Shown piece by piece: positions 12,567 to 46,713 of a DNA stretch of 46,713 nucleotides. The position numbers were made by a program, and so were the translations under genes. The notes beneath the pieces were generated by a model that was not told the DNA's origin, made no database searches, and was given only the letters and a program-made list of their open reading frames with translations. Position 1 is the first letter of the stretch. The number at the start of each line of letters is the position of its first letter. The DNA is from a phage, in sequence record PZ379183.1; one strand, given 5' to 3'.

Positions 12567-12962
12567 ATGAACGAACAAGCATTAGCCTTTATGAAGTCGC
12601 TGGTTCCTGCTCTTAAGAATATTCCAGATGAAACGCTGGACGTATGGCTTGAGTTAGCTAAGCTATACATCTGCACCAGTAAGTTTGGTGATGATGCTTA
12701 TAAAGCGCTGTCGCTATACACTCTGCACATTGCCTTTCTTGATGGCGCGCTTAAGCAGAATGAGTCGCTGGATGATTATGGCAAGAAGGTGGCAAGTTAC
12801 TCCCTGAGCGGTGAATTTTCTATCAGCTATGAATCCACCTCGCAAACTCAATCATCATTGACAGCTACGCCGTGGGGCCGACTTTACTGGAATCTCCTGC
12901 GCAAGAAAGGCGGCGGATTTGGCTTGATTACGTCCGCTGGGCGTGAGTGCGGTTGCCAATGA
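12567..12962 (+). CDS. head-tail connector / head completion protein (putative)
   Basis: ORF track 12552..12962, start at ATG after GGAGG; position in head-tail joining block. Confidence 0.45.
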   Translation: MNEQALAFMKSLVPALKNIPDETLDVWLELAKLYICTSKFGDDAYKALSLYTLHIAFLDGALKQNESLDDYGKKVASYSLSGEFSISYESTSQTQSSLTATPWGRLYWNLLRKKGGGFGLITSAGRECGCQ

Positions 12963-13330
12963 ATTACTCCCAAGTAGAATCATTAATGCGCACGGGCATC
13001 AATATCTTTAGTGATGGCGATGGTACATTCACGATGAATACTGGTAAAGGTGGTGTCGAAATTGTTGACGGCGTTGAGGTTCCTGTAGCTGGCGGCACTG
13101 CATTAATCAAGGGGCTGGTGAGGGAGATTAAAACCAGAGATATTGATGGCGAATATATCCAGTTTGGTGACAAGCGTGGAATTTTCACTTCTGAAGTCCC
13201 AATCTTGCAGGGCTACAGGATTATAGTTGAAGATGAAACTTACACTGTAGTCGACCCGAGGCCAGTCAAACCAACAGGAACTATAGTGGCTTACAGACCA
13301 ATTCTAAGGAGGGTTGCTACCTATGGCTAG
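12959..13330 (+). CDS. head-tail joining protein (putative)
   Basis: ATGA overlap with upstream gene; position. Confidence 0.4.
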   Translation: MNYSQVESLMRTGINIFSDGDGTFTMNTGKGGVEIVDGVEVPVAGGTALIKGLVREIKTRDIDGEYIQFGDKRGIFTSEVPILQGYRIIVEDETYTVVDPRPVKPTGTIVAYRPILRRVATYG

Positions 13331-13760: not shown

Positions 13761-14158
13761 TGCAGTATGAGCTATCCTTAGCAGCAAGGAGGTTTGTGAC
13801 TGATTTGGTTGAAACGTTTCCAGTCAGGTATCCAATTTCCTATGAAAACGTAGCCTTCTCTCCTCCCAATAATGGTGGTATGTGGCTGAAATACGATTAC
13901 ACAGAGGCAGATACCGTAACCTACAGCCTGAGTCGCAAGTGTAAGTACTATGTTGGCATGGTTCAGGTATCCGTCTTTTTCTCACCAGGTGATGGTGTCG
14001 ACAGTGCAAGGAGATTAGCGAATCAATTGGCAGAATCAATGCTTGATGGTACAATGCTTGACACAGGCTACATTTATAAGGGCGGAGTAGTTCACCCAGT
14101 CGTGAAGTCAAAATCTGGCTGGTTTATTCCAGTTCGTTTCTATGTTCGTCTTGACTAA
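13760..14158 (+). CDS. tail terminator / tail-to-head joining protein (putative)
   Basis: AAGGAG RBS; position immediately before major tail region. Confidence 0.4.
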   Translation: MQYELSLAARRFVTDLVETFPVRYPISYENVAFSPPNNGGMWLKYDYTEADTVTYSLSRKCKYYVGMVQVSVFFSPGDGVDSARRLANQLAESMLDGTMLDTGYIYKGGVVHPVVKSKSGWFIPVRFYVRLD

Positions 14159-14168
14159 AAGGTTGCAA

Positions 14169-14651
14169 ATGAAAGAGTTCTTGAATTCTCTTTACGATTA
14201 TCGTGATGGTCAAATCTTTAAAAAAGGAAAAGGCAATCCTGCTGGTTATGGTTCTAGTAACGGATACGTAAAGACTTACGTATCAAAGACTGGTAAGATG
14301 TATATCCACAGGATTGTTTGGACGATGCATAATGGAGATATTCCTGAAGGCATGCAAATTGATCACTTAAACGGAAATCGAAGTGATAATCGCATTGAGA
14401 ATTTAAGGTGTGTTACTGCAACTGAAAATAGAAGGAATCAAGGCACTAGAAAACGTTCATTCCCAGGCGTTAATGGTGTAAACTACAATAATCGTGATAA
14501 CCTTTGGCATGCGATGATATCAGATAATGGCAAGAAAATTAGTCTTGGTCACTATAAGAGTTTCATATCCGCATGCGAAGCAAGAATTGTTGCTGAGGTA
14601 TCACTTGGTTATCACATAAATCACGCAAGCCGAGAAAGGCACGTATCTTAA
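14169..14651 (+). CDS. HNH homing endonuclease
   Basis: YIHRIVW...IDHLNGNRSDNRIENLR signature; paralogous to ORF 33821..34300; inserted inside the tail gene block. Confidence 0.75.
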   Translation: MKEFLNSLYDYRDGQIFKKGKGNPAGYGSSNGYVKTYVSKTGKMYIHRIVWTMHNGDIPEGMQIDHLNGNRSDNRIENLRCVTATENRRNQGTRKRSFPGVNGVNYNNRDNLWHAMISDNGKKISLGHYKSFISACEARIVAEVSLGYHINHASRERHVS

Positions 14652-14655
14652 GTCA

Positions 14656-15333
14656 TTGATTTGGAGGTGTATTATTGCTCATTTATCAAACGGCACTCAG
14701 GTCTTCGTAGAAGGCACTAGGGGAGCTGCTATCGACGTAACTGCAATTTCCAATGCTGTTACTCCTGTTTTAACTTTGTCCAGCGTTGCCGATATTGCAC
14801 GCGGTGATTACCTGCTATTTACCAGCTCAGCTTCGACCCTGCTGGCTGATAAGCAAGTTCGCGTTACCGAGGTATCTGGTTCAACCGTAACTGTTGAAGG
14901 TATTGATACCTCCAACACCACTAAGTTACCAGCTGGCTTAACTGGTGAAGTTGTTAAGATTCTTACTTGGTTTGAAGTTCCTTGTGTTCAGGACGTATCC
15001 ACTGATGGCGGCGAACAGCAGTTCGTTAACTTCCAGTGTTTATCTGATGATCGTGAGCAGCAGATTCCAACTTATAAGTCTGCGGTAACCAACACCTACA
15101 CGTTTGCGCACGAATACACCAACCCGGTATATCCGATTCTGCGTAACTATGACGAAGCTGGTACTGTTGTTGCTATTCGTCTGTTCGTACCTCGAGCTAG
15201 CGAGATGCGTCTCCAGTCTGGCACTATCGCTTTCAACGACACCCCAAGCATTGGTGTTAACGAAATCGAAACGGTATCCATCGCGGTATCTATCCGTGGT
15301 AGGTTGAGTTCTGTAGCTTCTGAACTGTCATAA
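14656..15333 (+). CDS. major tail protein (putative)
   Basis: 225-aa Thr/Val/Ser-rich ORF followed by strong terminator and preceding chaperone genes; start codon uncertain (TTG at 14656 or in-frame ATT after GGAGGTG). Confidence 0.55.
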   Translation: MIWRCIIAHLSNGTQVFVEGTRGAAIDVTAISNAVTPVLTLSSVADIARGDYLLFTSSASTLLADKQVRVTEVSGSTVTVEGIDTSNTTKLPAGLTGEVVKILTWFEVPCVQDVSTDGGEQQFVNFQCLSDDREQQIPTYKSAVTNTYTFAHEYTNPVYPILRNYDEAGTVVAIRLFVPRASEMRLQSGTIAFNDTPSIGVNEIETVSIAVSIRGRLSSVASELS

Positions 15334-15340
15334 ATATAAA

Positions 15341-15360
15341 CCCTCTTCGGAGGGTTTTTT
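15341..15360 (+). terminator. rho-independent terminator
   Basis: CCCTC-TTCG-GAGGG hairpin followed by T6. Confidence 0.8.
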
Positions 15361-15365
15361 ATTGA

Positions 15366-15382
15366 TAGCACTTTTTGTTAAA
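15366..15382 (+). promoter_or_regulatory. TAGCAC-N5-GCTAA motif copy (variant TAGCACTTTTTGTTAAAG)
   Basis: Followed by TGTATAGT and CATTCATCGAAACGAAA leader before ATG 15442. Confidence 0.5.
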
Positions 15383-15441
15383 GACCAAATCGCGGATTGC
15401 TGTATAGTTCATTCATCGAAACGAAATGAGATATTAGTGAA

Positions 15442-15690
15442 ATGAACAACGTTAAAAACATCATCAAACTTGCTGCTGCTCTTGGTGCTTTCTACCTGGC
15501 AATTCAGATTGTTAACCCAACTGGTGGCGAAACCGCAAACTCTGATGCAATAAAGTATGAACATGAATTTAATAGTGCATACTCGCATTGTGAAAAAGTA
15601 GCTGGCGATAAGACAAACCAGATTCTGCACTATGGTCGTGAAGTGTGCACCGAAGTTGCTCACAACATTGTAAAAAACGAATCAAAGTAA
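15442..15690 (+). CDS. small secreted/periplasmic protein (signal peptide, 2 Cys)
   Basis: N-terminal MNNVKNIIKLAAALGAFYLAIQIV hydrophobic signal-like segment; own motif-type promoter; inserted between major tail and chaperone genes. Confidence 0.45.
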   Translation: MNNVKNIIKLAAALGAFYLAIQIVNPTGGETANSDAIKYEHEFNSAYSHCEKVAGDKTNQILHYGREVCTEVAHNIVKNESK

Positions 15691-15725
15691 TATAATCATT
15701 CAACACAAACAAAGGAGATAACGAG

Positions 15726-16040
15726 ATGGCAAAATTTAAACTTTCACTTAAGGCGCTGCCTGACTTTAAACTTCCGGTTAAGTTTCAGTTAGCGAATGGT
15801 GAAGATGCAGAGGTGGTACTAACAGTTAAGCACAAGAAATCATCTGAACTTCAGGAGATTCTTAATCGTGAAAACTTCAGCACTAAAGAATTGATTAACG
15901 AAATCTGCTCTGACTGGGATTTAGAAGAACCATTTACCGATGAGAACGTAGATGAGTTTGCCAACCTTTTCCCTGGTGCCGTTCCATCACTGATGGATAG
16001 CTACATGAAAGCGCTAGCAGGTCAGCGAGTAAAAAACTAA
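15726..16040 (+). CDS. tail assembly chaperone (G-like)
   Basis: GGAGATAACGAGATG start; acidic 104-aa ORF immediately upstream of tape measure; ends at slippery heptamer. Confidence 0.6.
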   Translation: MAKFKLSLKALPDFKLPVKFQLANGEDAEVVLTVKHKKSSELQEILNRENFSTKELINEICSDWDLEEPFTDENVDEFANLFPGAVPSLMDSYMKALAGQRVKN

Positions 16041-16354
16041 AACGCGCAGTATACTTACAATACCAGTCACCGCCAACGGATGCTGAACTCGAAGCTATCG
16101 GAATGAAACGTTCCGATTATGAAGGTGATGAGCCTGAAGAGTTATACTTCGATGAAACAATGATGCAAAGCTGGGATGTGTACTGTGCCATGTCAACTCA
16201 ATGGCGAGTAGGGGCTTGCGGTGCCACAGGCCTTGATTATAATTGCCTTCCATTCTTGTTCAAAGTCTATAAAATAGATGATGACGAAATGGTACTTAAC
16301 GACATCAGAATACTTGAGGGTAAAGCCTTAGATATGATGAACGCCAAGAAATAG
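15726..16354 (+). CDS. tail assembly chaperone GT-like fusion via programmed -1 frameshift
   Basis: Slippery heptamer A-AAA-AAC at 16031-16037 in frame of upstream ORF; -1 frame is open from 16037 through ORF 16103..16354 with no stop (checked codon by codon). Confidence 0.55.
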
Positions 16355-16377
16355 CCATCCTTCGGGGTGGCTTTTTT
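16354..16377 (+). terminator. rho-independent terminator
   Basis: GCCATCC-TTCG-GGGTGGC hairpin followed by T6. Confidence 0.65.
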
Positions 16378-16391
16378 ATTATGGAGACAAC

Positions 16392-19373
16392 ATGGCAACT
16401 AACGAAATTGCTGGTATCACGCTAGCCGTCGACGTAGCTCAGGTCGATAAGGGTACGCAATCCTTACAGAAATTCAGGCAAGCAAACGAGCAAGCTGCAA
16501 CAGGCATTAATAGCTTCGTCAACGCCGAACTTGTAGCCAAGACTCAAGCAAGGGACACTGCAAGGCAGCTTGAGGAGCAGCGCAAATCTTTCGCATCACT
16601 TCAGCAAGCCATAGACCCAACCGCTGCTAAATTCCTGAAGTTGCAGAAAGCAGCAACAGATTTGGACAAAGCATTTGAATCCGGGATAGTTCCTGATGAT
16701 GAATTCTTCAGGCTTGGCTCTGTTATTGAAACTCAAATCAATAAGCTAAACAGGTCTAAAGCCGCTCTTAGCGAAGAAGGCAGGGCTGCACTACAGGCAT
16801 CAATAGATAAAGAGAAAGCAACAACAGCAGCGCAAAAGTTCATTCAATCTCTTGAGAACGAGGCGAATGCAGCAAGCCTGACAAGGACTGAACTTCTTCA
16901 GCTTAAGGCTGCTCAGCTAGGAGTTGGTGACCAGGCTGCACCGATTATCGACAGGATTGGAAAGGCTGCCGAGGCATCTGCGGTACAATTGCAGAAGCAA
17001 AGCTCCGCTTTTGTTAAGTCTGGGCTTAGTGCCGGTCAATACAAGCAAGCAATTCGACAGCTTCCAGCGCAGATTACAGATATCGGAACCTCTCTAGCTG
17101 GTGGTATCCCAATCTGGCTAATTGCAATTCAGCAGGGTGGGCAGATTAAGGATAGCTTTGGTGGTATTGCTAACACCGCAAGGTTCGCACTGGCAGCCAT
17201 TAACCCATTAACGGCAGTTGTTGGGACTTTGGGCTTGGCCCTCGGCGCTCTTGGTGTTGCTGCTTATCAGGCTGACAAGAACACTCGCGGACTAGCATCA
17301 ACGATAACATTGGTTGGCAACTCAACTATCACGTCGACAGCGCAGATAAATCAGGTTGTTGATGGAATTGAGAGTTCAACACTAGCCACGCGCGGACTTA
17401 TCCAGGAGATAGCTAACAGCCTGGTAGCAAACGGTAATCTGACTCTTACGCAGATAGATAAGATAACCAAGGCGACAGCACAATGGGCAACTGTAACATC
17501 AACAGACTCGAAAACTATTCTTGGATACTTTGATCAGATTACAAAGGACCCAATTCAAGGTCTGATTGCACTCGATAAGCAGTTCAACTTCCTTCAGTCT
17601 GGGCAATTGAAATACATTGAGAATATCAGGAAGACGGCTGGAGAAACAGAGGCTGTAACCGCAGCTACTGAGCTATTCGCTAACGTTATGGAAAACAGGC
17701 TAGCAGACGTAGCACTAAGCCTTAACCCTCTTGAGAGCGCATGGAATAGCTTCAGGAAGTTTGTAAGTGAGATTTGGGATGATATAAGCAAAAGGACGCT
17801 TGGGGCGCTTAACTTAATAACTGACGTTGTTGCTGGGACTATTGAGCAGATAAGGTCGTTAATAAACTCCGGTGATATCCTATTGGGCGAGTTTGCAATA
17901 GCAGCAACCAAGACACTTCAGTCAATACCTGGACTTGGCGATTTAGGCAATGAAGCAATCGCTGAGCAGCAAAAGATTGTTGATGCAGCTAAGAAGCAAA
18001 ATGAGGAGTTAGCAAAAAGCATAGCTGAGCGAGATGCGAGAATCAGGAAGGGTGAGCTTGGTTATGTCGAGAACAACAATAACACCAACCTTAGCGGCAA
18101 TAATGCATCAACCGATAAGGAGTTTGCAGCAAGGAAGAAGGCTCTTGCCGATGAGTATGATGCGATAAAGAAAGCAAGGAGTGAGAGGAAAAAGGCTGTA
18201 AAAGAAGAAAGTGATTTAACTTTATCTTATGAATCTGGCGTTCTTGCACTTCAGGCTCAGTTAAAGGTCTTACAAGAGCACAGAACGATAAATGATGTAA
18301 TAAGCAATGAAAGAAAGCAGTTATTCCAGGAAGAAGCGAAGTTTGCAATACTTGAACAAAGACAAGCGGATGGTACGCTTACAAAATCACAGGCTAAGCT
18401 ACTTGCGCAGAAGAATATCATTCTTGAACAGGCTAAACAGAAGGCTGAACTTGGTGACCAGATTGTGCTTCAGGAGAGGTCAAACAAGTTACTTGATGAC
18501 AACCTTAAGAAGACAATACAGATTACCAATGAGGCGAAGAATGTTTCACTTGCTGCGGGTCTATCCGAAAGGGAGCGGCAAAGGGCAGGAGAACTTCAGG
18601 CGCTAGAGTCCAATCAGGTAAACAAGGGTGGCTCTGTAAATGATGTTGATTTCCAAAATCTGCTGGAAGCAAGAAAAGAATACTACAGGCAGGAAGATAA
18701 CCTAAGGTCAGACTGGCAAGCTGGTGTAACTTCAACGCTTGCTGACTTAACTGAGAAGTACACTGACTTCAACCAAATTGCTAAGGATTTGACTGTCGCA
18801 GCTTTTGATGGAATTACCGACCAGATTACAAACCTTGTAACCACTGGAGAGACTAATTTCAGGGAGTTCACGGCAAACATACTGAAAATGATTGCGAAAA
18901 TTGCAACTCAGCTACTTTTGGTAAAGGCTATTGAATCTACAATTAAGAGCTTTGGTGGTGACACTGGAGCAGGTAGTGCCTTTGAGTCAATAAAGTCAGC
19001 AATTGGCTTTGCTGGTGGCGGCTACACTGGAGACGGCGGGAAGTATCAACCTGCTGGAACTGTGCACCGCGGTGAGTTTGTATTCACAAAAGAAGCTACA
19101 AGCAGGATTGGCGTTAAGAACCTGTACAAGCTAATGCGAGGTTATGCAAATGGCGGCGCTGTTGGTGGGCCCTCTGGCTATGCTAATGGTGGAGTTGTTG
19201 GTGGCACGAATGTCAGTGTTGGCGGCGTGACGGTTAACGTAAACTCTGGAATTGGTGGCGGAAATGATGCTAAGGCGATAGAATCTGGAGTCAAGGTTAT
19301 CGTTGCTGAGGAAATCAGCAAGTCATTCCAGCAGGGCGGAAGAGCCTTTGCTTATCTGAGGGGTTACAACTAA
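16392..19373 (+). CDS. tail tape measure protein
   Basis: 993-aa ORF, Ala/Gln/Leu-rich helical repeats with Gly-rich C-terminal region; position after chaperones. Confidence 0.85.
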   Translation: MATNEIAGITLAVDVAQVDKGTQSLQKFRQANEQAATGINSFVNAELVAKTQARDTARQLEEQRKSFASLQQAIDPTAAKFLKLQKAATDLDKAFESGIVPDDEFFRLGSVIETQINKLNRSKAALSEEGRAALQASIDKEKATTAAQKFIQSLENEANAASLTRTELLQLKAAQLGVGDQAAPIIDRIGKAAEASAVQLQKQSSAFVKSGLSAGQYKQAIRQLPAQITDIGTSLAGGIPIWLIAIQQGGQIKDSFGGIANTARFALAAINPLTAVVGTLGLALGALGVAAYQADKNTRGLASTITLVGNSTITSTAQINQVVDGIESSTLATRGLIQEIANSLVANGNLTLTQIDKITKATAQWATVTSTDSKTILGYFDQITKDPIQGLIALDKQFNFLQSGQLKYIENIRKTAGETEAVTAATELFANVMENRLADVALSLNPLESAWNSFRKFVSEIWDDISKRTLGALNLITDVVAGTIEQIRSLINSGDILLGEFAIAATKTLQSIPGLGDLGNEAIAEQQKIVDAAKKQNEELAKSIAERDARIRKGELGYVENNNNTNLSGNNASTDKEFAARKKALADEYDAIKKARSERKKAVKEESDLTLSYESGVLALQAQLKVLQEHRTINDVISNERKQLFQEEAKFAILEQRQADGTLTKSQAKLLAQKNIILEQAKQKAELGDQIVLQERSNKLLDDNLKKTIQITNEAKNVSLAAGLSERERQRAGELQALESNQVNKGGSVNDVDFQNLLEARKEYYRQEDNLRSDWQAGVTSTLADLTEKYTDFNQIAKDLTVAAFDGITDQITNLVTTGETNFREFTANILKMIAKIATQLLLVKAIESTIKSFGGDTGAGSAFESIKSAIGFAGGGYTGDGGKYQPAGTVHRGEFVFTKEATSRIGVKNLYKLMRGYANGGAVGGPSGYANGGVVGGTNVSVGGVTVNVNSGIGGGNDAKAIESGVKVIVAEEISKSFQQGGRAFAYLRGYN

Positions 19374-25350: not shown

Positions 25351-25375
25351 GGCCCCTTTCGGGGCCTTTTCTTTT
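25351..25375. terminator. terminator hairpin between convergent genes
   Basis: GGCCCC-TTTC-GGGGCC hairpin followed by TTTTCTTTT. Confidence 0.7.
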
Positions 25376-26345
25376 AGTAGAAGTTTGGTATGAATGGTAG
25401 AGCCATTGATATGTTTGTGTCGAATGGGAATTGGGCCCCCGTCTGCGTTGAGTAGTTCCCTATCACAGTGCCTGGAACTGCCCTTACGGCACCACCAGAC
25501 ATGCATATTCCCTTGTACCTTAAGTTGTTATACCCTCCAGTAACTCTTGTTGTAGCGCCGCACCTGAGCAGTGGGAAGAACCCTCCATTTATTGACTGGA
25601 AACCATTGGTTATTTGTATAAAGCCACCAAGCACGAACGGTCGCCTGACGCTTGAAAAAACAATCTGTCCAGAACTATTAGACATTGTGAGTCCTGGGCC
25701 AGCTACTGGAGGGTCATTCCTGAATATCACTAACTGTACGTAAGTACTTGCTGCAACGTCATCTATGCCGCTGTAGTTTATGTTGCGGCACCAAATTGTA
25801 TTACCGTCGCTCTCCAGAGAAACGTTTGGGTTATCCCATTTACCAAATGGAATCCCACTGACTGGTAGTGAGGCGGCGCCGTTAACCTGTATTCCACCAA
25901 CCCATGCCGCAGACATTAACCGCGAATTGCTTGAAATTGCCAAAAAGTCAGTTGAGTTCTCAACCAGTATTCCTGGGCTTGATGAAGACGAGGCTGGGAG
26001 TATTTCAAAGCAATTTCCAGCAAAGTCAATTATACGACCTCTTGCGCCATTGAAGTCACTAAGCGTTATCCTGCCAGTTCCGTCATTTACCTTCTGGAAC
26101 CCGTTCATATAATAAACTTCAGGTACAACATCATAAGCGTCAACGTGCACAGCCTTTGTTGGAAGGCAGAATGCTGTTGAGCCTGGGGACATGGTTAAAC
26201 CAAAATCCCATGATGATGCTGGCGTCGAAAGTCCATTGGTATTTATTGAGCCAGTCACAGCGGGCGCTCTTAATCCTGCCGTTATTTCCATAGGTGGCCT
26301 TCCATCATTAAGGTCAATCAATATTCCTTGAGGCATTATTTCCAC
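25374..26345 (-). CDS. putative receptor-binding / tail fibre-associated protein
   Basis: 323-aa Gly/Ser/Asn/Thr-rich ORF convergent with the J-like gene and co-oriented with the lipoprotein gene; function inferred from context only. Confidence 0.35.
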
Positions 26346-26581
26346 TCCTTAGACCCATGGTCAGCAACAGAGCCACCGTAACCGCCGCCAGCCTTGCTCT
26401 CAATACCAGCGTATCGCACATCAACTTCACCAGACGGTACAACCACACCATTTTCCCATTTAGCCACGCACACGCCGTTTGCTTGCGTTGCACACCATCC
26501 GTCAGGACGCGGAGCAGAAGAACAACCCACCATCATGATTGCTGCTGCTGCGATGATTGAAAGTTTGATTAAGTTAGTCAT
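26336..26581 (-). CDS. small lipoprotein, Cor/Llp-like superinfection-exclusion candidate
   Basis: N-terminal signal peptide with lipobox-like MVGC, mature part ~60 aa with Cys pair; AAGGAATACGAAAATG start with own motif-type promoter. Confidence 0.55.
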
Positions 26582-27439: not shown

Positions 27440-27720
27440 ATGTATGCAATCTCATCCGCGAAAAATGATATACGCAATGTTACGCCAATTTACGCATTGG
27501 TTACATTAAAATATATATATATATCAACCTTTTACTCTTATTATTATTATTATATATATTACTATGTATATCATGTAACTGCTCTTATGGAGTGTTTCGG
27601 TTATAATTTTAATATCATGTGGATTTATACAGTATTGCGCGGTAGCTATACCAATGCACCCTCAGCAATAAATGATATACATGATATACGCACTATTTAC
27701 ATTGAGCTATAGCTTGGCTC
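27440..27720. repeat. AT-rich iteron and microsatellite region
   Basis: TACGC repeated three times at 10-bp spacing (27474-27500), GATATACGCA copies at 27466 and 27681, (AT)n and (TTA)5 tracts; 85-bp segment 27491-27575 duplicated at 46416-46500. Confidence 0.7.
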
Positions 27721-41058: not shown

Positions 41059-41110
41059 GCTTATAATTTGCCACCGCCTAATGTATGATATTTGCACTAT
41101 GTATTGACAA
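41059..41110 (+). promoter_or_regulatory. candidate promoter region of lysis cassette
   Basis: TATAAT at 41062-41067 and TTGACA at 41104-41109 are both present, but no pair with canonical spacing was found. Confidence 0.25.
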
Positions 41111-41132
41111 ATTAGGATTTAAAGGTGATCAC

Positions 41133-41348
41133 ATGAGGGAAGTAATTAACGCCGCCACGGCATCAACCGGCGGAGCCGCTGTAACTGGTGCCGCAACTGG
41201 TCAAATGACTATAGCAATAATCAGCCTTGTGGCTCTTGTTGTTTTCGGGCTGTGGGGAGCATATTGGAAGTTTAAGGACAGTCAGGCAATCAGGAAGGCT
41301 CTAGAGTCGGGTGATTTAAAGACAGCTATCAATATTAGGAGTAAGTAA
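41133..41348 (+). CDS. holin (pinholin-like, putative)
   Basis: Internal ATG of ORF 41085..41348 with AAAGGTGA RBS; Gly/Ala-rich weakly hydrophobic N-terminal segment plus one strong TM segment and charged C-terminus; immediately upstream of endolysin. Confidence 0.55.
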   Translation: MREVINAATASTGGAAVTGAATGQMTIAIISLVALVVFGLWGAYWKFKDSQAIRKALESGDLKTAINIRSK

Positions 41349-41833
41349 TGAAGCAGAAGCTGGTAATTAGTGCAGCGACGGCTGTGGCAATATACATCGC
41401 AGCGCCGATTATTGAGCTAGTAGAAGGTGTGGAATACAAGCCTTACATGGACATTGCAGGCATTCCTACGGTTTGTTCAGGTATCACTGGTCCTGATGTG
41501 GTGTGGGGTAAAAAGTACAGTGCAAGGGAGTGCAGGAACTTACTGGAGAAACACATCCAGATTCATGGAAAGTATGTGCAGGATGCAGTAACTTACCCAA
41601 TCTCTCCACAGACAAGGGCGGCGTTAATCAGCTTTAGCTACAACGTTGGTGGCGCTGCAATGAGGAAGTCAACGGCAGTAAGGCTGATTAATCAGGGCAA
41701 GATTGAAGAGGGTTGTAATGCTCTCGCCTCCTGGAATAAAGCTCGAGTAAATGGCAAGCTAAAAGTTGTTAAAGGCCTCGTCAACAGGCGCAACGAGGAG
41801 ATTAAATTATGCTTAAGTGGGGTGGGTAAATGA
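41348..41833 (+). CDS. endolysin, GH24 lysozyme with SAR-type N-terminal signal-anchor
   Basis: N-terminal Ala/Ile-rich segment (LVISAATAVAIYIAAPI) followed by the catalytic Glu context IIELVEGVEYKPYMD...G-I-P-T, resembling SAR lysozymes such as P1 Lyz. Confidence 0.75.
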   Translation: MKQKLVISAATAVAIYIAAPIIELVEGVEYKPYMDIAGIPTVCSGITGPDVVWGKKYSARECRNLLEKHIQIHGKYVQDAVTYPISPQTRAALISFSYNVGGAAMRKSTAVRLINQGKIEEGCNALASWNKARVNGKLKVVKGLVNRRNEEIKLCLSGVGK

Positions 41834-42216
41834 AGGCTGCGTTAATTGCTGCGGTAATTATACTTTCTGGTTGCTCGGCAACATCTGCGCTGACCGGGTT
41901 GATTGGTAGTAGGCCAGAGATTAGCGCTCAAGCAGGTGCGGAGAATAACAAGGTTGGAGTGGGGATAACTAATAAGGTTGATTCAAGTTCCAGCGCAAAG
42001 GCTGAAGTGAAGAACTCTAAGGTTGACACTCTTGATAGTTCAAGCGGTAAAAAGACTTCTGATAACTCAATCAAGGCATCAACAATCACGGCTGAGAAGA
42101 TTGAAATCACCAACAATGATTCGTCTGCAATCCCGTGGATTGGGAGTGGAATCATGTTTTGCGTCATCATCATTCTGCTCTTAATGATATTCAGGAAAAA
42201 CAAAAAAGCCCCGTAA
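41830..42216 (+). CDS. unimolecular spanin (u-spanin, T1 gp11-like)
   Basis: N-terminal lipoprotein signal with lipobox LSGC and a C-terminal transmembrane segment (IPWIGSGIMFCVIIILLLMIF); immediately after endolysin. Confidence 0.65.
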   Translation: MKAALIAAVIILSGCSATSALTGLIGSRPEISAQAGAENNKVGVGITNKVDSSSSAKAEVKNSKVDTLDSSSGKKTSDNSIKASTITAEKIEITNNDSSAIPWIGSGIMFCVIIILLLMIFRKNKKAP

Positions 42217-46270: not shown

Positions 46271-46415
46271 ATGTGGGGTGAATGAATGGTGGATGGACTA
46301 CCATACAAGTTGATTTTGATTCTTGCTGAGCCAATTTGGATATACACGTTATCGAAGTTATGGTGTGTATATGAGGTGCGCTTCCGAAGAATCATACACG
46401 CCTACCACGCTAGAT

Positions 46416-46500
46416 TACGCAATGGTTACATAATAATATCTATATATATCAACCTTTTACTATATTATTATTATTATTATATATATGTATGTATATGGTG
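46416..46500. repeat. second copy of the 85-bp AT-rich element with (TTA)n microsatellite
   Basis: TACGCAATGGTTACATAATAATATCTATATATATCAACCTTTTACT...(TTA)6...TATATAT is near-identical to 27491-27575. Confidence 0.7.
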
Positions 46501-46713
46501 TAGATTGGTCGTATGGATGGGTCGATAGTTTTTCTATGAAAACTACTAATTTTATCTATATAGATACATATGCATACCCCCGGCGAATCCGCGTAAAATC
46601 TTACACAGGGTAATTACACCAGCTATAGCTGGGCTGAGAGGTCAAAAAGCGTAACCAATGCAGATATAAACACAACATAACACTTGATAACGCGTATATT
46701 CATGATACCATGG

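Follow-up and report, generated by a model that had tools for sequence, protein, structure and literature searches.

The tail operon of an Escherichia coli phage (sequence record PZ379183.1, whose 46,713 nucleotides constitute the window analysed here) contains a small gene, ORF82 (open reading frame (ORF) at 15442..15690, plus strand, 82 amino acids from ATG to TAA), that is genuine and under constraint, restricted to one lineage of phages, and lodged in a variable slot which in relatives holds other exported cargo. The window represents a T1-like siphophage of the Drexlerviridae, subfamily Braunvirinae, near Christensenvirus. Taken as a whole the evidence is best explained, with somewhat less than even confidence, if ORF82 is an exported slot-cargo protein that works against later phages from within the envelope of the infected cell; the narrower proposal that it excludes superinfecting phages at a step after adsorption is tentative. 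What is said below of the export of ORF82, its disulfide formation, its timing and its target is what we infer. The protein is best assigned to a new orphan family in a known category, the small envelope-targeted accessory proteins encoded in phage structural operons.

ORF82 carries the hallmarks of a protein-coding gene. The pairwise ratio of nonsynonymous to synonymous substitution (dN/dS) ranges from 0.07 to 0.32 among ten ORF82 alleles, and by segment it is mostly below 0.7, the shortest segments being noisy and one of them reaching 1.36. Differences counted by codon position (707/571/1351) peak at the third position, which fits the plus-strand frame and is incompatible with an overlapping antisense ORF. 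An alignment of 19 sequences holds 22 invariant columns including C50, C69, A32, N25-P26-T27, G55 and G65, and the length of 82 amino acids is kept in nearly all of the ~82 phage records in which tblastn detects the gene. All of these are Braunvirinae-type E. coli phages, two of which carry other host labels, yet represent the same kind of genome. The opposing view, that ORF82 arose by chance in a long intergenic stretch and is not a functional gene, could draw on its weak Shine-Dalgarno-like element (GAGA, 15428..15431, plus strand, 10 nt 5' of the ATG; the Rtp-like clade has GAGAG at this position) and on the absence of homologues beyond one phage subfamily. The conserved length, the invariant columns with both cysteines, and a dN/dS well under 1, also where synonymous sites have reached saturation, effectively refute it, and we give it almost no credence. 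A mini-ORF of three codons (ATG AGA TAT TAG, 15426-15437) lies just 5' of the start; in the Rtp-like clade it reads ATG AGA GAT TAA, and it is kept in the ORF82-type and Rtp units that were read but not in TR1. It is probably just the Shine-Dalgarno-like GAGAG region plus one inserted T.

Outside its own family ORF82 resembles nothing that has been described. A word-indexed search of 5.8 billion proteins returned eight clusters, all of the ORF82 family, and an exhaustive profile search of 1.84 billion representatives returned a single cluster, the family itself. The sole PHROG match is 22925, of unknown function. No families were found in Pfam at E<=1 or among the PADLOC-DB profiles at E<=10, NCBIfam gave no match, a sequence profile search of the PDB gave nothing meaningful, and E. 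coli genomes and plasmids contain no match. A Foldseek comparison of the AlphaFold2 (AF2) model with BFVD and the PDB found no match at E<=0.001, only generic helical hairpins. Homologues in GenBank are named 'hypothetical', and the literature consulted on Rtp-like phages and T1-like proteomes, a scope that excludes the Rtp genome paper, makes no statement on ORF82. Two annotations at the locus are misleading: in phage ES (OR466728; L001, 2254-2502) the homologue is misannotated as an 'exonuclease', and in IMM-001 (L017, 1691-1783) a spurious overlapping ORF is labelled 'phosphoribosyl-ATP diphosphatase'.

ORF82 is locally the most divergent gene, being 88% identical to its counterpart in phage ES while its neighbours are 95-100% identical. 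The divergence is concentrated in codons 37-66, where in the comparison with ES synonymous sites are saturated (proportion of synonymous differences, pS, 0.79), the proportion of nonsynonymous differences (pN) is low and the flanks are nearly identical. Judged from this pattern the segment appears to be an old recombinant allele patch inside ORF82; positive selection at these codons was considered and rejected, given the synonymous saturation and the low pN/pS. In all four pairwise comparisons positions 15550-15640 include the most divergent 60-90 nt of the 1.7-kb tail segment. The base composition of ORF82 (39.8% GC) lies at the 16th percentile of 249-nt windows across the sequence (mean 44.0%, sd 4.2), and the neighbouring chaperone genes have 40.6-41.3%.

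The slot itself provides the second line of evidence. ORF82 lies, as the earlier note had reported, between the terminator of the major tail protein gene and the chaperone genes, all of which are found where it placed them. The intrinsic terminator (15338..15363, plus strand) consists of an 8-bp stem, AAACCCTC/GAGGGTTT (15338-15357), with a TTCG loop and a T-run, and it is near-identical base by base in the ORF82-type loci (L001-L010 and L015-L017) as well as in Rtp and TR1. It is followed by a promoter-like unit (15365..15424, plus strand), by ORF82 and then by the tail assembly chaperone gene. In T1, Rogue1, BrunoManser and PeteCarol the interval between the tube protein and chaperone genes measures 4-113 nt and contains no ORF, compared with 392 nt including ORF82 in the window. 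Across the stop codon of ORF82 stretches a sigma-70-like promoter (TTGTAA-17-TATAAT, 15668..15696, plus strand, 10 of 12 consensus positions), which resembles the annotated pre-chaperone promoter of Rogue1 in both sequence and position and probably served the chaperone genes ancestrally. Since the slot is empty elsewhere and the chaperone promoter has been kept, ORF82 and the unit upstream of it look as if they had been inserted between an old terminator and an old promoter. By the definition of Juhala and Hendrix morons are extra DNA relative to collinear relatives, which ORF82 is (PMC3594210). A moron also has its own terminator downstream, and here no terminator-like site is present at 15690-15726, the next being at 16353-16372.

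In Rtp, AugustePiccard and TR1 the slot holds a different cargo, a lipoprotein of 126-128 amino acids whose lipobox reads LLAGC or LTLTGC and which has two cysteines more; it is located at 1201-1587 in Rtp (L019), 1554-1934 in TR1 (L018) and 12827-13192 in AugustePiccard (MZ501051). This rtp34-type lipoprotein is likewise an orphan, a phage-only family of 14 clusters, and it stands behind the same terminator, unit and leader as ORF82. The notion that rtp34 of Rtp is an ORF82 orthologue was discarded after tblastn identified it as a member of the unrelated lipoprotein family also present in TR1, and kinship between the two families was likewise rejected (hhalign probability 0.1). The rtp34-like lipoproteins (Rtp, AugustePiccard, TR1, MM01) thus share with ORF82 the slot, terminator, unit and leader, export and two mature cysteines, but differ from it in sequence, length and lipid anchoring, and their function is equally unknown. 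The TR1 chaperone is 99% identical to that of the window, yet the slot cargo differs, from which it follows that cargo has been exchanged between near-isogenic tail modules. A further variation is seen in CY1 (L002, ~2275-2415), where an additional unannotated ORF of 46 amino acids, MILIGMLTAFFYYATGLTFWVSLGAAIGTYFVSALLALIVRALRNR, with two hydrophobic segments and a match to PHROG 16572, lies between the promoter-like unit and ORF82. The junction of this insertion is located within the AAACGAGAG leader motif, pointing to recombination at the repeated leader; Rao1, TR2 and TR3 probably share the insertion, judging from the same two-piece alignment to the window.

Read across the collinear genomes, the slot appears as a moron-like, swappable site for envelope-targeted proteins, and ORF82 as an accessory gene. 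A bolder version, which we regard as doubtful, holds that the slot is a dedicated, recombination-prone cassette, delimited by the repeated promoter and leader unit, whereby virulent T1-like phages trade envelope effectors such as ORF82, the rtp34-type lipoproteins and the 46-residue peptide of CY1. ORF82 would then found a new family of periplasmic proteins that block genome transit mediated by the tape measure after adsorption, a second and receptor-independent layer of exclusion that complements Rtp45, the exclusion lipoprotein discussed below. A comparable arrangement is reportedly found in T4-type phages, where Arbiol and colleagues are said to have described in 2010 PeSL cassettes, in which promoter plus stem-loop repeats mediate the shuffling of small accessory genes. 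Both systems have repeated terminator-plus-promoter modules flanking small non-essential genes that differ between close relatives; the phage family and the motif are not the same, and in the present case recombination at the units is deduced from the positions of junctions.

The same comparisons bear on whether ORF82 belongs to the tail, either as a protein that the chaperones handle and that is packaged together with the tape measure and then ejected into the envelope, or as a Braunvirinae tail assembly factor. Its position directly 5' of the tape-measure chaperone genes and its co-transcription with them would suit such a role, as would its confinement to a subfamily with a rosette-type tail tip (PMC5816109). 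The replacement of ORF82 by a lipoprotein in Rtp, AugustePiccard and TR1 points the other way, because a lipoprotein cannot be part of the virion, so that ORF82 is unlikely to be a virion component. TR1 moreover does with 99%-identical chaperones and no ORF82, the N-terminus has classic Sec-type charge and hydrophobicity, and no such protein is listed in the published virion proteomes of T1-like phages, which themselves lack the gene (PMC4070988). A tail-associated function is accordingly rated very improbable.

The protein sequence suggests export. Residues 1-32 (15442..15537, plus strand) have the layout of a Sec-type signal on a heuristic reading: an n-region, MNNVKNIIK (residues 1-9), with a net charge of +2; an h-region, LAAALGAFYLAIQIV (residues 10-24), which is the sole hydrophobic segment of the protein, with a Kyte-Doolittle 15-mer mean of 2.08; and a c-region, NPTGGETA (residues 25-32), that opens with the helix breaker N25-P26 directly after the hydrophobic core and within the invariant N25-P26-T27. 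The remainder is hydrophilic. The flanks of the core are basic before and acidic after it, so the positive-inside rule predicts an N-in/C-out topology, and we consider export in this orientation very probable. Cleavage by signal peptidase has about an even chance, and the N-terminal segment may be a Sec signal peptide that is cleaved off or may stay as a signal anchor (N-in/C-out). At the presumptive -1 position A32 never varies, and at -3 most homologues have A, S or T, so that residues 30-32 read A/S/T-x-A, followed by N, in most alleles; the window phage and two other alleles have E at -3 (E-T-A in the window), with alternative cleavage sites at T-G-G|E and A-N-S|D. The hydrophobic start resembling a signal peptide and the two cysteines in the rest of the protein, both pointed out in the earlier note, were located at residues 10-24 and at C50 and C69. 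Its description of the protein as secreted holds for the export-type N-terminus and goes too far beyond it, the cleavage site being ambiguous.

ORF82 has no lipobox (L-x-x-C) at the end of the signal, its first cysteine being residue 50, and consequently has no route for targeting to the outer membrane. Residues 33-82 (15538..15687, plus strand) are predicted, from the 19-sequence alignment and the AF2 model, to form a periplasmic helical domain. Conserved positions 36/39/43/46/50/53 trace a heptad-like stripe, and the model consists of three helices (residues 2-27, 30-54 and 57-81) with a mean predicted local distance difference test (pLDDT) score of 66.8, rising to ~70-79 across residues 33-82. 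The two cysteines (C50, codon 15589-15591; C69, codon 15646-15648) are invariant in 19 of 19 homologues and are probably both oxidised in the periplasm.

An exported accessory protein under purifying selection, belonging to a lineage-restricted orphan family and sharing its slot with another envelope-targeted cargo, could also manipulate the host envelope or counter a defence, for instance by binding a protease, an energy-transducing complex, Lpt components or a membrane-bound defence so that the infection is kept productive. The conserved N-terminal segment contains a small-residue motif, A12-x3-A16, that would fit a membrane partner. The searches yielded neither a PADLOC match nor any likeness to described proteins, no partner can be named, and the higher conservation of the 5' part of the gene extends to synonymous sites and may therefore only reflect a recombination boundary. 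We judge this possibility to be rather unlikely, at a level with a role in lysis timing.

Receptor-level exclusion, by contrast with the post-adsorption role proposed for ORF82, appears to be covered by another gene in the window. A lipoprotein of family PF24052 with the lipobox MMVGC, encoded at 26336..26581 on the minus strand, is 81% identical to Rtp45 (profile match 1.8e-39) and lies immediately upstream of a receptor-binding protein gene similar to Rtp44 (40% identity, DUF6453), both genes occupying 25374..26581 (minus strand). Rtp45 is a structurally characterised exclusion protein that binds LptDE, and its mature form has an intramolecular disulfide (bioRxiv 10.1101/2025.07.07.663478). 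The juxtaposition of the Rtp45 orthologue with an Rtp44-like receptor-binding protein implies that exclusion at the receptor is already encoded and that the window phage probably uses LptD; by homology it probably carries the known LptDE-directed exclusion lipoprotein.

For ORF82 to mask or modify a receptor at the outer membrane, in the manner of Cor, Llp and Rtp45, is hence a scenario with very little to recommend it. ORF82 shares with these small exported proteins of T1- and T5-like siphophages the possession of two cysteines, which in the mature Rtp45/Llp/Cor type form an intramolecular disulfide (bioRxiv 10.1101/2025.07.07.663478), and a promoter-like unit of the same type precedes the Rtp45 orthologue. 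It differs from them in having neither a lipobox nor a match to the PF24052 profile, and unlike all known cases it is not linked to the locus of the receptor-binding protein (PMC8594841). Near-identical ORF82 alleles moreover occur in phages that use different receptors, FepA in IME253 and LptD in JeanPiccard (PMC8594841), and the function is already provided for by the Rtp45 orthologue. Of the three roles that had been put forward for ORF82 from the sequence (receptor modification, superinfection exclusion and defence evasion), receptor modification is on these grounds the least likely.

How post-adsorption exclusion by ORF82 would work can be sketched as follows. The promoter-like unit would reinitiate transcription after the terminator of the major tail protein gene, making ORF82 the first cistron of a short ORF82-G-T transcript. 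Sec would insert the protein with its N-terminus inside and ~50 residues in the periplasm, folded as a small helical domain. Situated in the envelope of the infected cell, ORF82 would stop later-arriving phages after they have bound their receptor, and the step blocked may be the passage across periplasm and inner membrane that the tape measure mediates, by analogy with HK97 gp15 and T4 Sp and Imm. It would in this way supplement the Rtp45-like lipoprotein, which masks the receptor and whose gene lies in another part of the genome.

The closest precedent is gp15 of HK97, a small protein of the inner membrane that prevents genome entry; its gene is a moron located between those of the chaperone and the tape measure (PMC3594210). 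Like gp15, ORF82 is a small predicted envelope protein with a single transmembrane (TM) segment, encoded by a tail-operon insertion, accessory, and absent from close relatives (PMC3594210). The two differ in location, ORF82 lying between the tube protein and the chaperone, and in that gp15 has its own terminator, expression from the prophage and bacterial homologues, none of which were found for ORF82 of this virulent phage. Neither Pfam (E<=1) nor the profile search of 1.84 billion representatives revealed YebO-like homology. The T4 proteins Spackle (Sp), Imm and RI are a second point of reference; each is 80-100 amino acids long, begins with an export or anchor segment that precedes a small domain in the periplasm, and works at the envelope of the infected cell. 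ORF82 resembles them in size, in its export or anchor segment and in its small periplasmic domain, but no profile or fold match connects them and the T4 genes lie outside the tail operon. Nor is a tail lysozyme target evident in the window phage, and its holin lacks a periplasmic domain.

Several observations weigh against post-adsorption exclusion by ORF82. Pfam, NCBIfam, PADLOC, PDB sequence and fold searches revealed no homology to any exclusion protein. The export call itself is derived from charge, hydrophobicity and flanking residues and not from a signal-peptide predictor. In the AF2 hairpin, a model with a pLDDT of only 67, C50 and C69 are offset along their helices, so that an intramolecular disulfide requires a kink or turn at the invariant G65; were this turn not made, the cysteines would presumably pair between subunits. 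The exchange of cargo between near-identical tails (TR1 and the window) argues against a tight co-adaptation with the tape measure. Finally, these are virulent phages, and with its apparent chaperone co-transcription ORF82 may be made late, which would be odd for a block of injection. The promoter-like unit also precedes replication genes, so the expression of ORF82 is not fixed as late.

A small membrane-tethered periplasmic protein could instead regulate the timing of lysis by modulating the holin, the unimolecular spanin or the endolysin, in the manner of T4 RI. The layout of ORF82 is RI-like, with a weakly hydrophobic N-terminus (6 of the 15 h-region residues are Ala or Gly) followed by a helical periplasmic domain of ~50 amino acids, and its probable co-expression with tail genes would provide it at the right time. 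In T4, too, rI is encoded apart from the lysis cassette, which we count in favour of this alternative. The window has a complete, canonical T1-like lysis cassette at 41085-42216, with the holin gene at 41085-41348, the endolysin gene and a unimolecular spanin gene (41830..42216) whose product has a lipobox and a C-terminal TM segment, and the holin (71-87 amino acids) has no sizeable periplasmic domain for ORF82 to bind. ORF82 has no sequence or profile match to lysis families in Pfam or PHROGs, the alternative cargo of Rtp-type phages is a lipoprotein of unrelated sequence, and lysis inhibition is not known as a trait of the T1 group. A role in lysis timing is thus improbable, and the idea that ORF82 is itself a spanin or holin was rejected, the cassette being complete elsewhere and PHROG 22925 the sole match.

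The expression of ORF82 hinges on the promoter-like unit that precedes it. A complete motif and leader had been described at this position, and a full copy is indeed present at 15365-15424: a palindrome, TAGCA-N5-TGTTA (15366-15380), a 22-nt spacer, a -10-like hexamer, TATAGT (15403-15408), and a leader, CATCGAAACGA (15414-15424), all on the plus strand. The window contains 16 copies of the unit on both strands, compared with 0.45 expected by chance. Ten are on the plus strand (1181, 1863, 3208, 6949, 15365, 29050, 34838, 37334, 39670 and 40757) and six on the minus strand (26666, 27414, 38421, 44224, 45004 and 46153), with a degenerate copy at 670. Their consensus is AATAGCAC-nAA-TTGCTAAA, ~22 nt, a TATAAT-like hexamer and the leader, in which the palindrome reads TAGCA-N5-TGCTA. 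Copies precede virion, recombination, helicase, kinase, methyltransferase and lysis genes as well as the Rtp45-like gene, so the unit is a general promoter-like module of the phage and carries no information on timing. In relatives the palindrome, -10 and leader of the ORF82 unit are kept while the spacer diverges, which supports a function, and we regard the unit at 15365-15424 as a putative promoter.

It is not a conventional one. In the ORF82 unit TTGTTA is 22 nt from TATAGT, which is not canonical sigma-70 -35/-10 spacing, and a sigma-70 consensus scan did not list the unit at 15365-15424. In the consensus, too, TTGCTA is 22 nt from the -10 and thus too far for a normal -35; the centre of the palindrome lies near -42, a position that would be typical of an activator site. 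A sigma-54 reading of the motif (TAGCAC...TTGCT, similar to TGGCAC-N5-TTGC) was rejected by inspection, its spacing being 2 nt too short. The Rfam scan of 15250-15800 gave nothing near threshold, and the fold of the leader has a z-score of only -1.6. The spacers of the units usually hold an inverted repeat of variable sequence that abuts the -10 (such as GCCA-TGGA-TGGC, CTCA-AGGA-TGAG and GCCGGA-GAAA-TCCGGC), with a mean best stem of 4.29 compared with 2.92 +/- 0.21 in shuffles. In T1 (L011, 1688-1800) and BrunoManser (L013, 1689-1800) the same palindrome (TTAACAAAAAGTGCTAT / TTTAGCAATTCGTGCTAT) is found in the opposite orientation, 3' of an extended -10 promoter and just 5' of the chaperone ribosome-binding site, so the palindrome can take an operator-like as well as an upstream position.

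The unit is unlikely to serve ORF82 alone. The terminator scan found no terminator between ORF82 and the chaperone genes, and in Rtp the unit is the only visible promoter for rtp34-rtp35-rtp36, none being visible before rtp35. Both facts indicate a shared and not a private element, and the transcript of ORF82 is predicted to continue through the chaperone genes to the terminator at 16353-16372. The earlier note's suggestion that ORF82 has its own promoter-like element consequently survives in part: the promoter-like unit is there, and with no terminator before the chaperone genes it is not private to ORF82.

Rtp-like phages are well known for contaminating industrial E. coli fermentations and serve as models for LptD-targeting phages, and the Rtp45 lipoprotein is the only characterised exclusion factor known in this group. 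If post-adsorption exclusion by ORF82 holds true, these phages would have a second envelope effector that does not depend on the receptor; it would account for some of their competitive behaviour and could open a way to study how siphophage DNA passes the periplasm and inner membrane, a step that is poorly understood. If no exclusion or lysis phenotype emerges, ORF82 would join the small orphan membrane proteins that are common in phage genomes, and as an ordinary phage accessory gene it would not surprise a specialist. The question is cheap to test, the gene being short, its alleles clear and natural swap variants available (the window compared with TR1 and CY1); these natural cargo swaps, together with an understood second exclusion protein in the same genome, make ORF82 a reasonably attractive experimental target.

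The surrounding tail genes lie in the following order. The major tail protein gene (PF08813) ends at 15333, and downstream of ORF82 the tail assembly chaperone gene (15726..16040, PF08748) is followed by a DUF1799 chaperone gene (16103..16354), the terminator at 16353-16372 identified by the terminator scan, and the tape measure gene (16392..19373). Between 14600 and 16500 the window shares 92-93% identity with phages ES, AN_ECEAS, CY1, Rao1, TR2 and TR3, and in the 5' half of this region ~80-88% with Rtp-like phages. An HNH endonuclease gene (14142..14651, plus strand; PF13392 and a weak, sub-threshold AP2 match) sits between the tail-terminator gene and the major tail protein gene. ES, CY1 and EC3a have no HNH gene at the corresponding position, and the gene looks like a typical free-standing homing endonuclease insertion. 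Elsewhere in the window an AT-rich element of 96 nt containing (TA)n and (TTA)n tracts occurs twice, at 27482-27577 and 46407-46502, the copies being 76% identical; this repeat could be related to an origin, to pac or to regulation.

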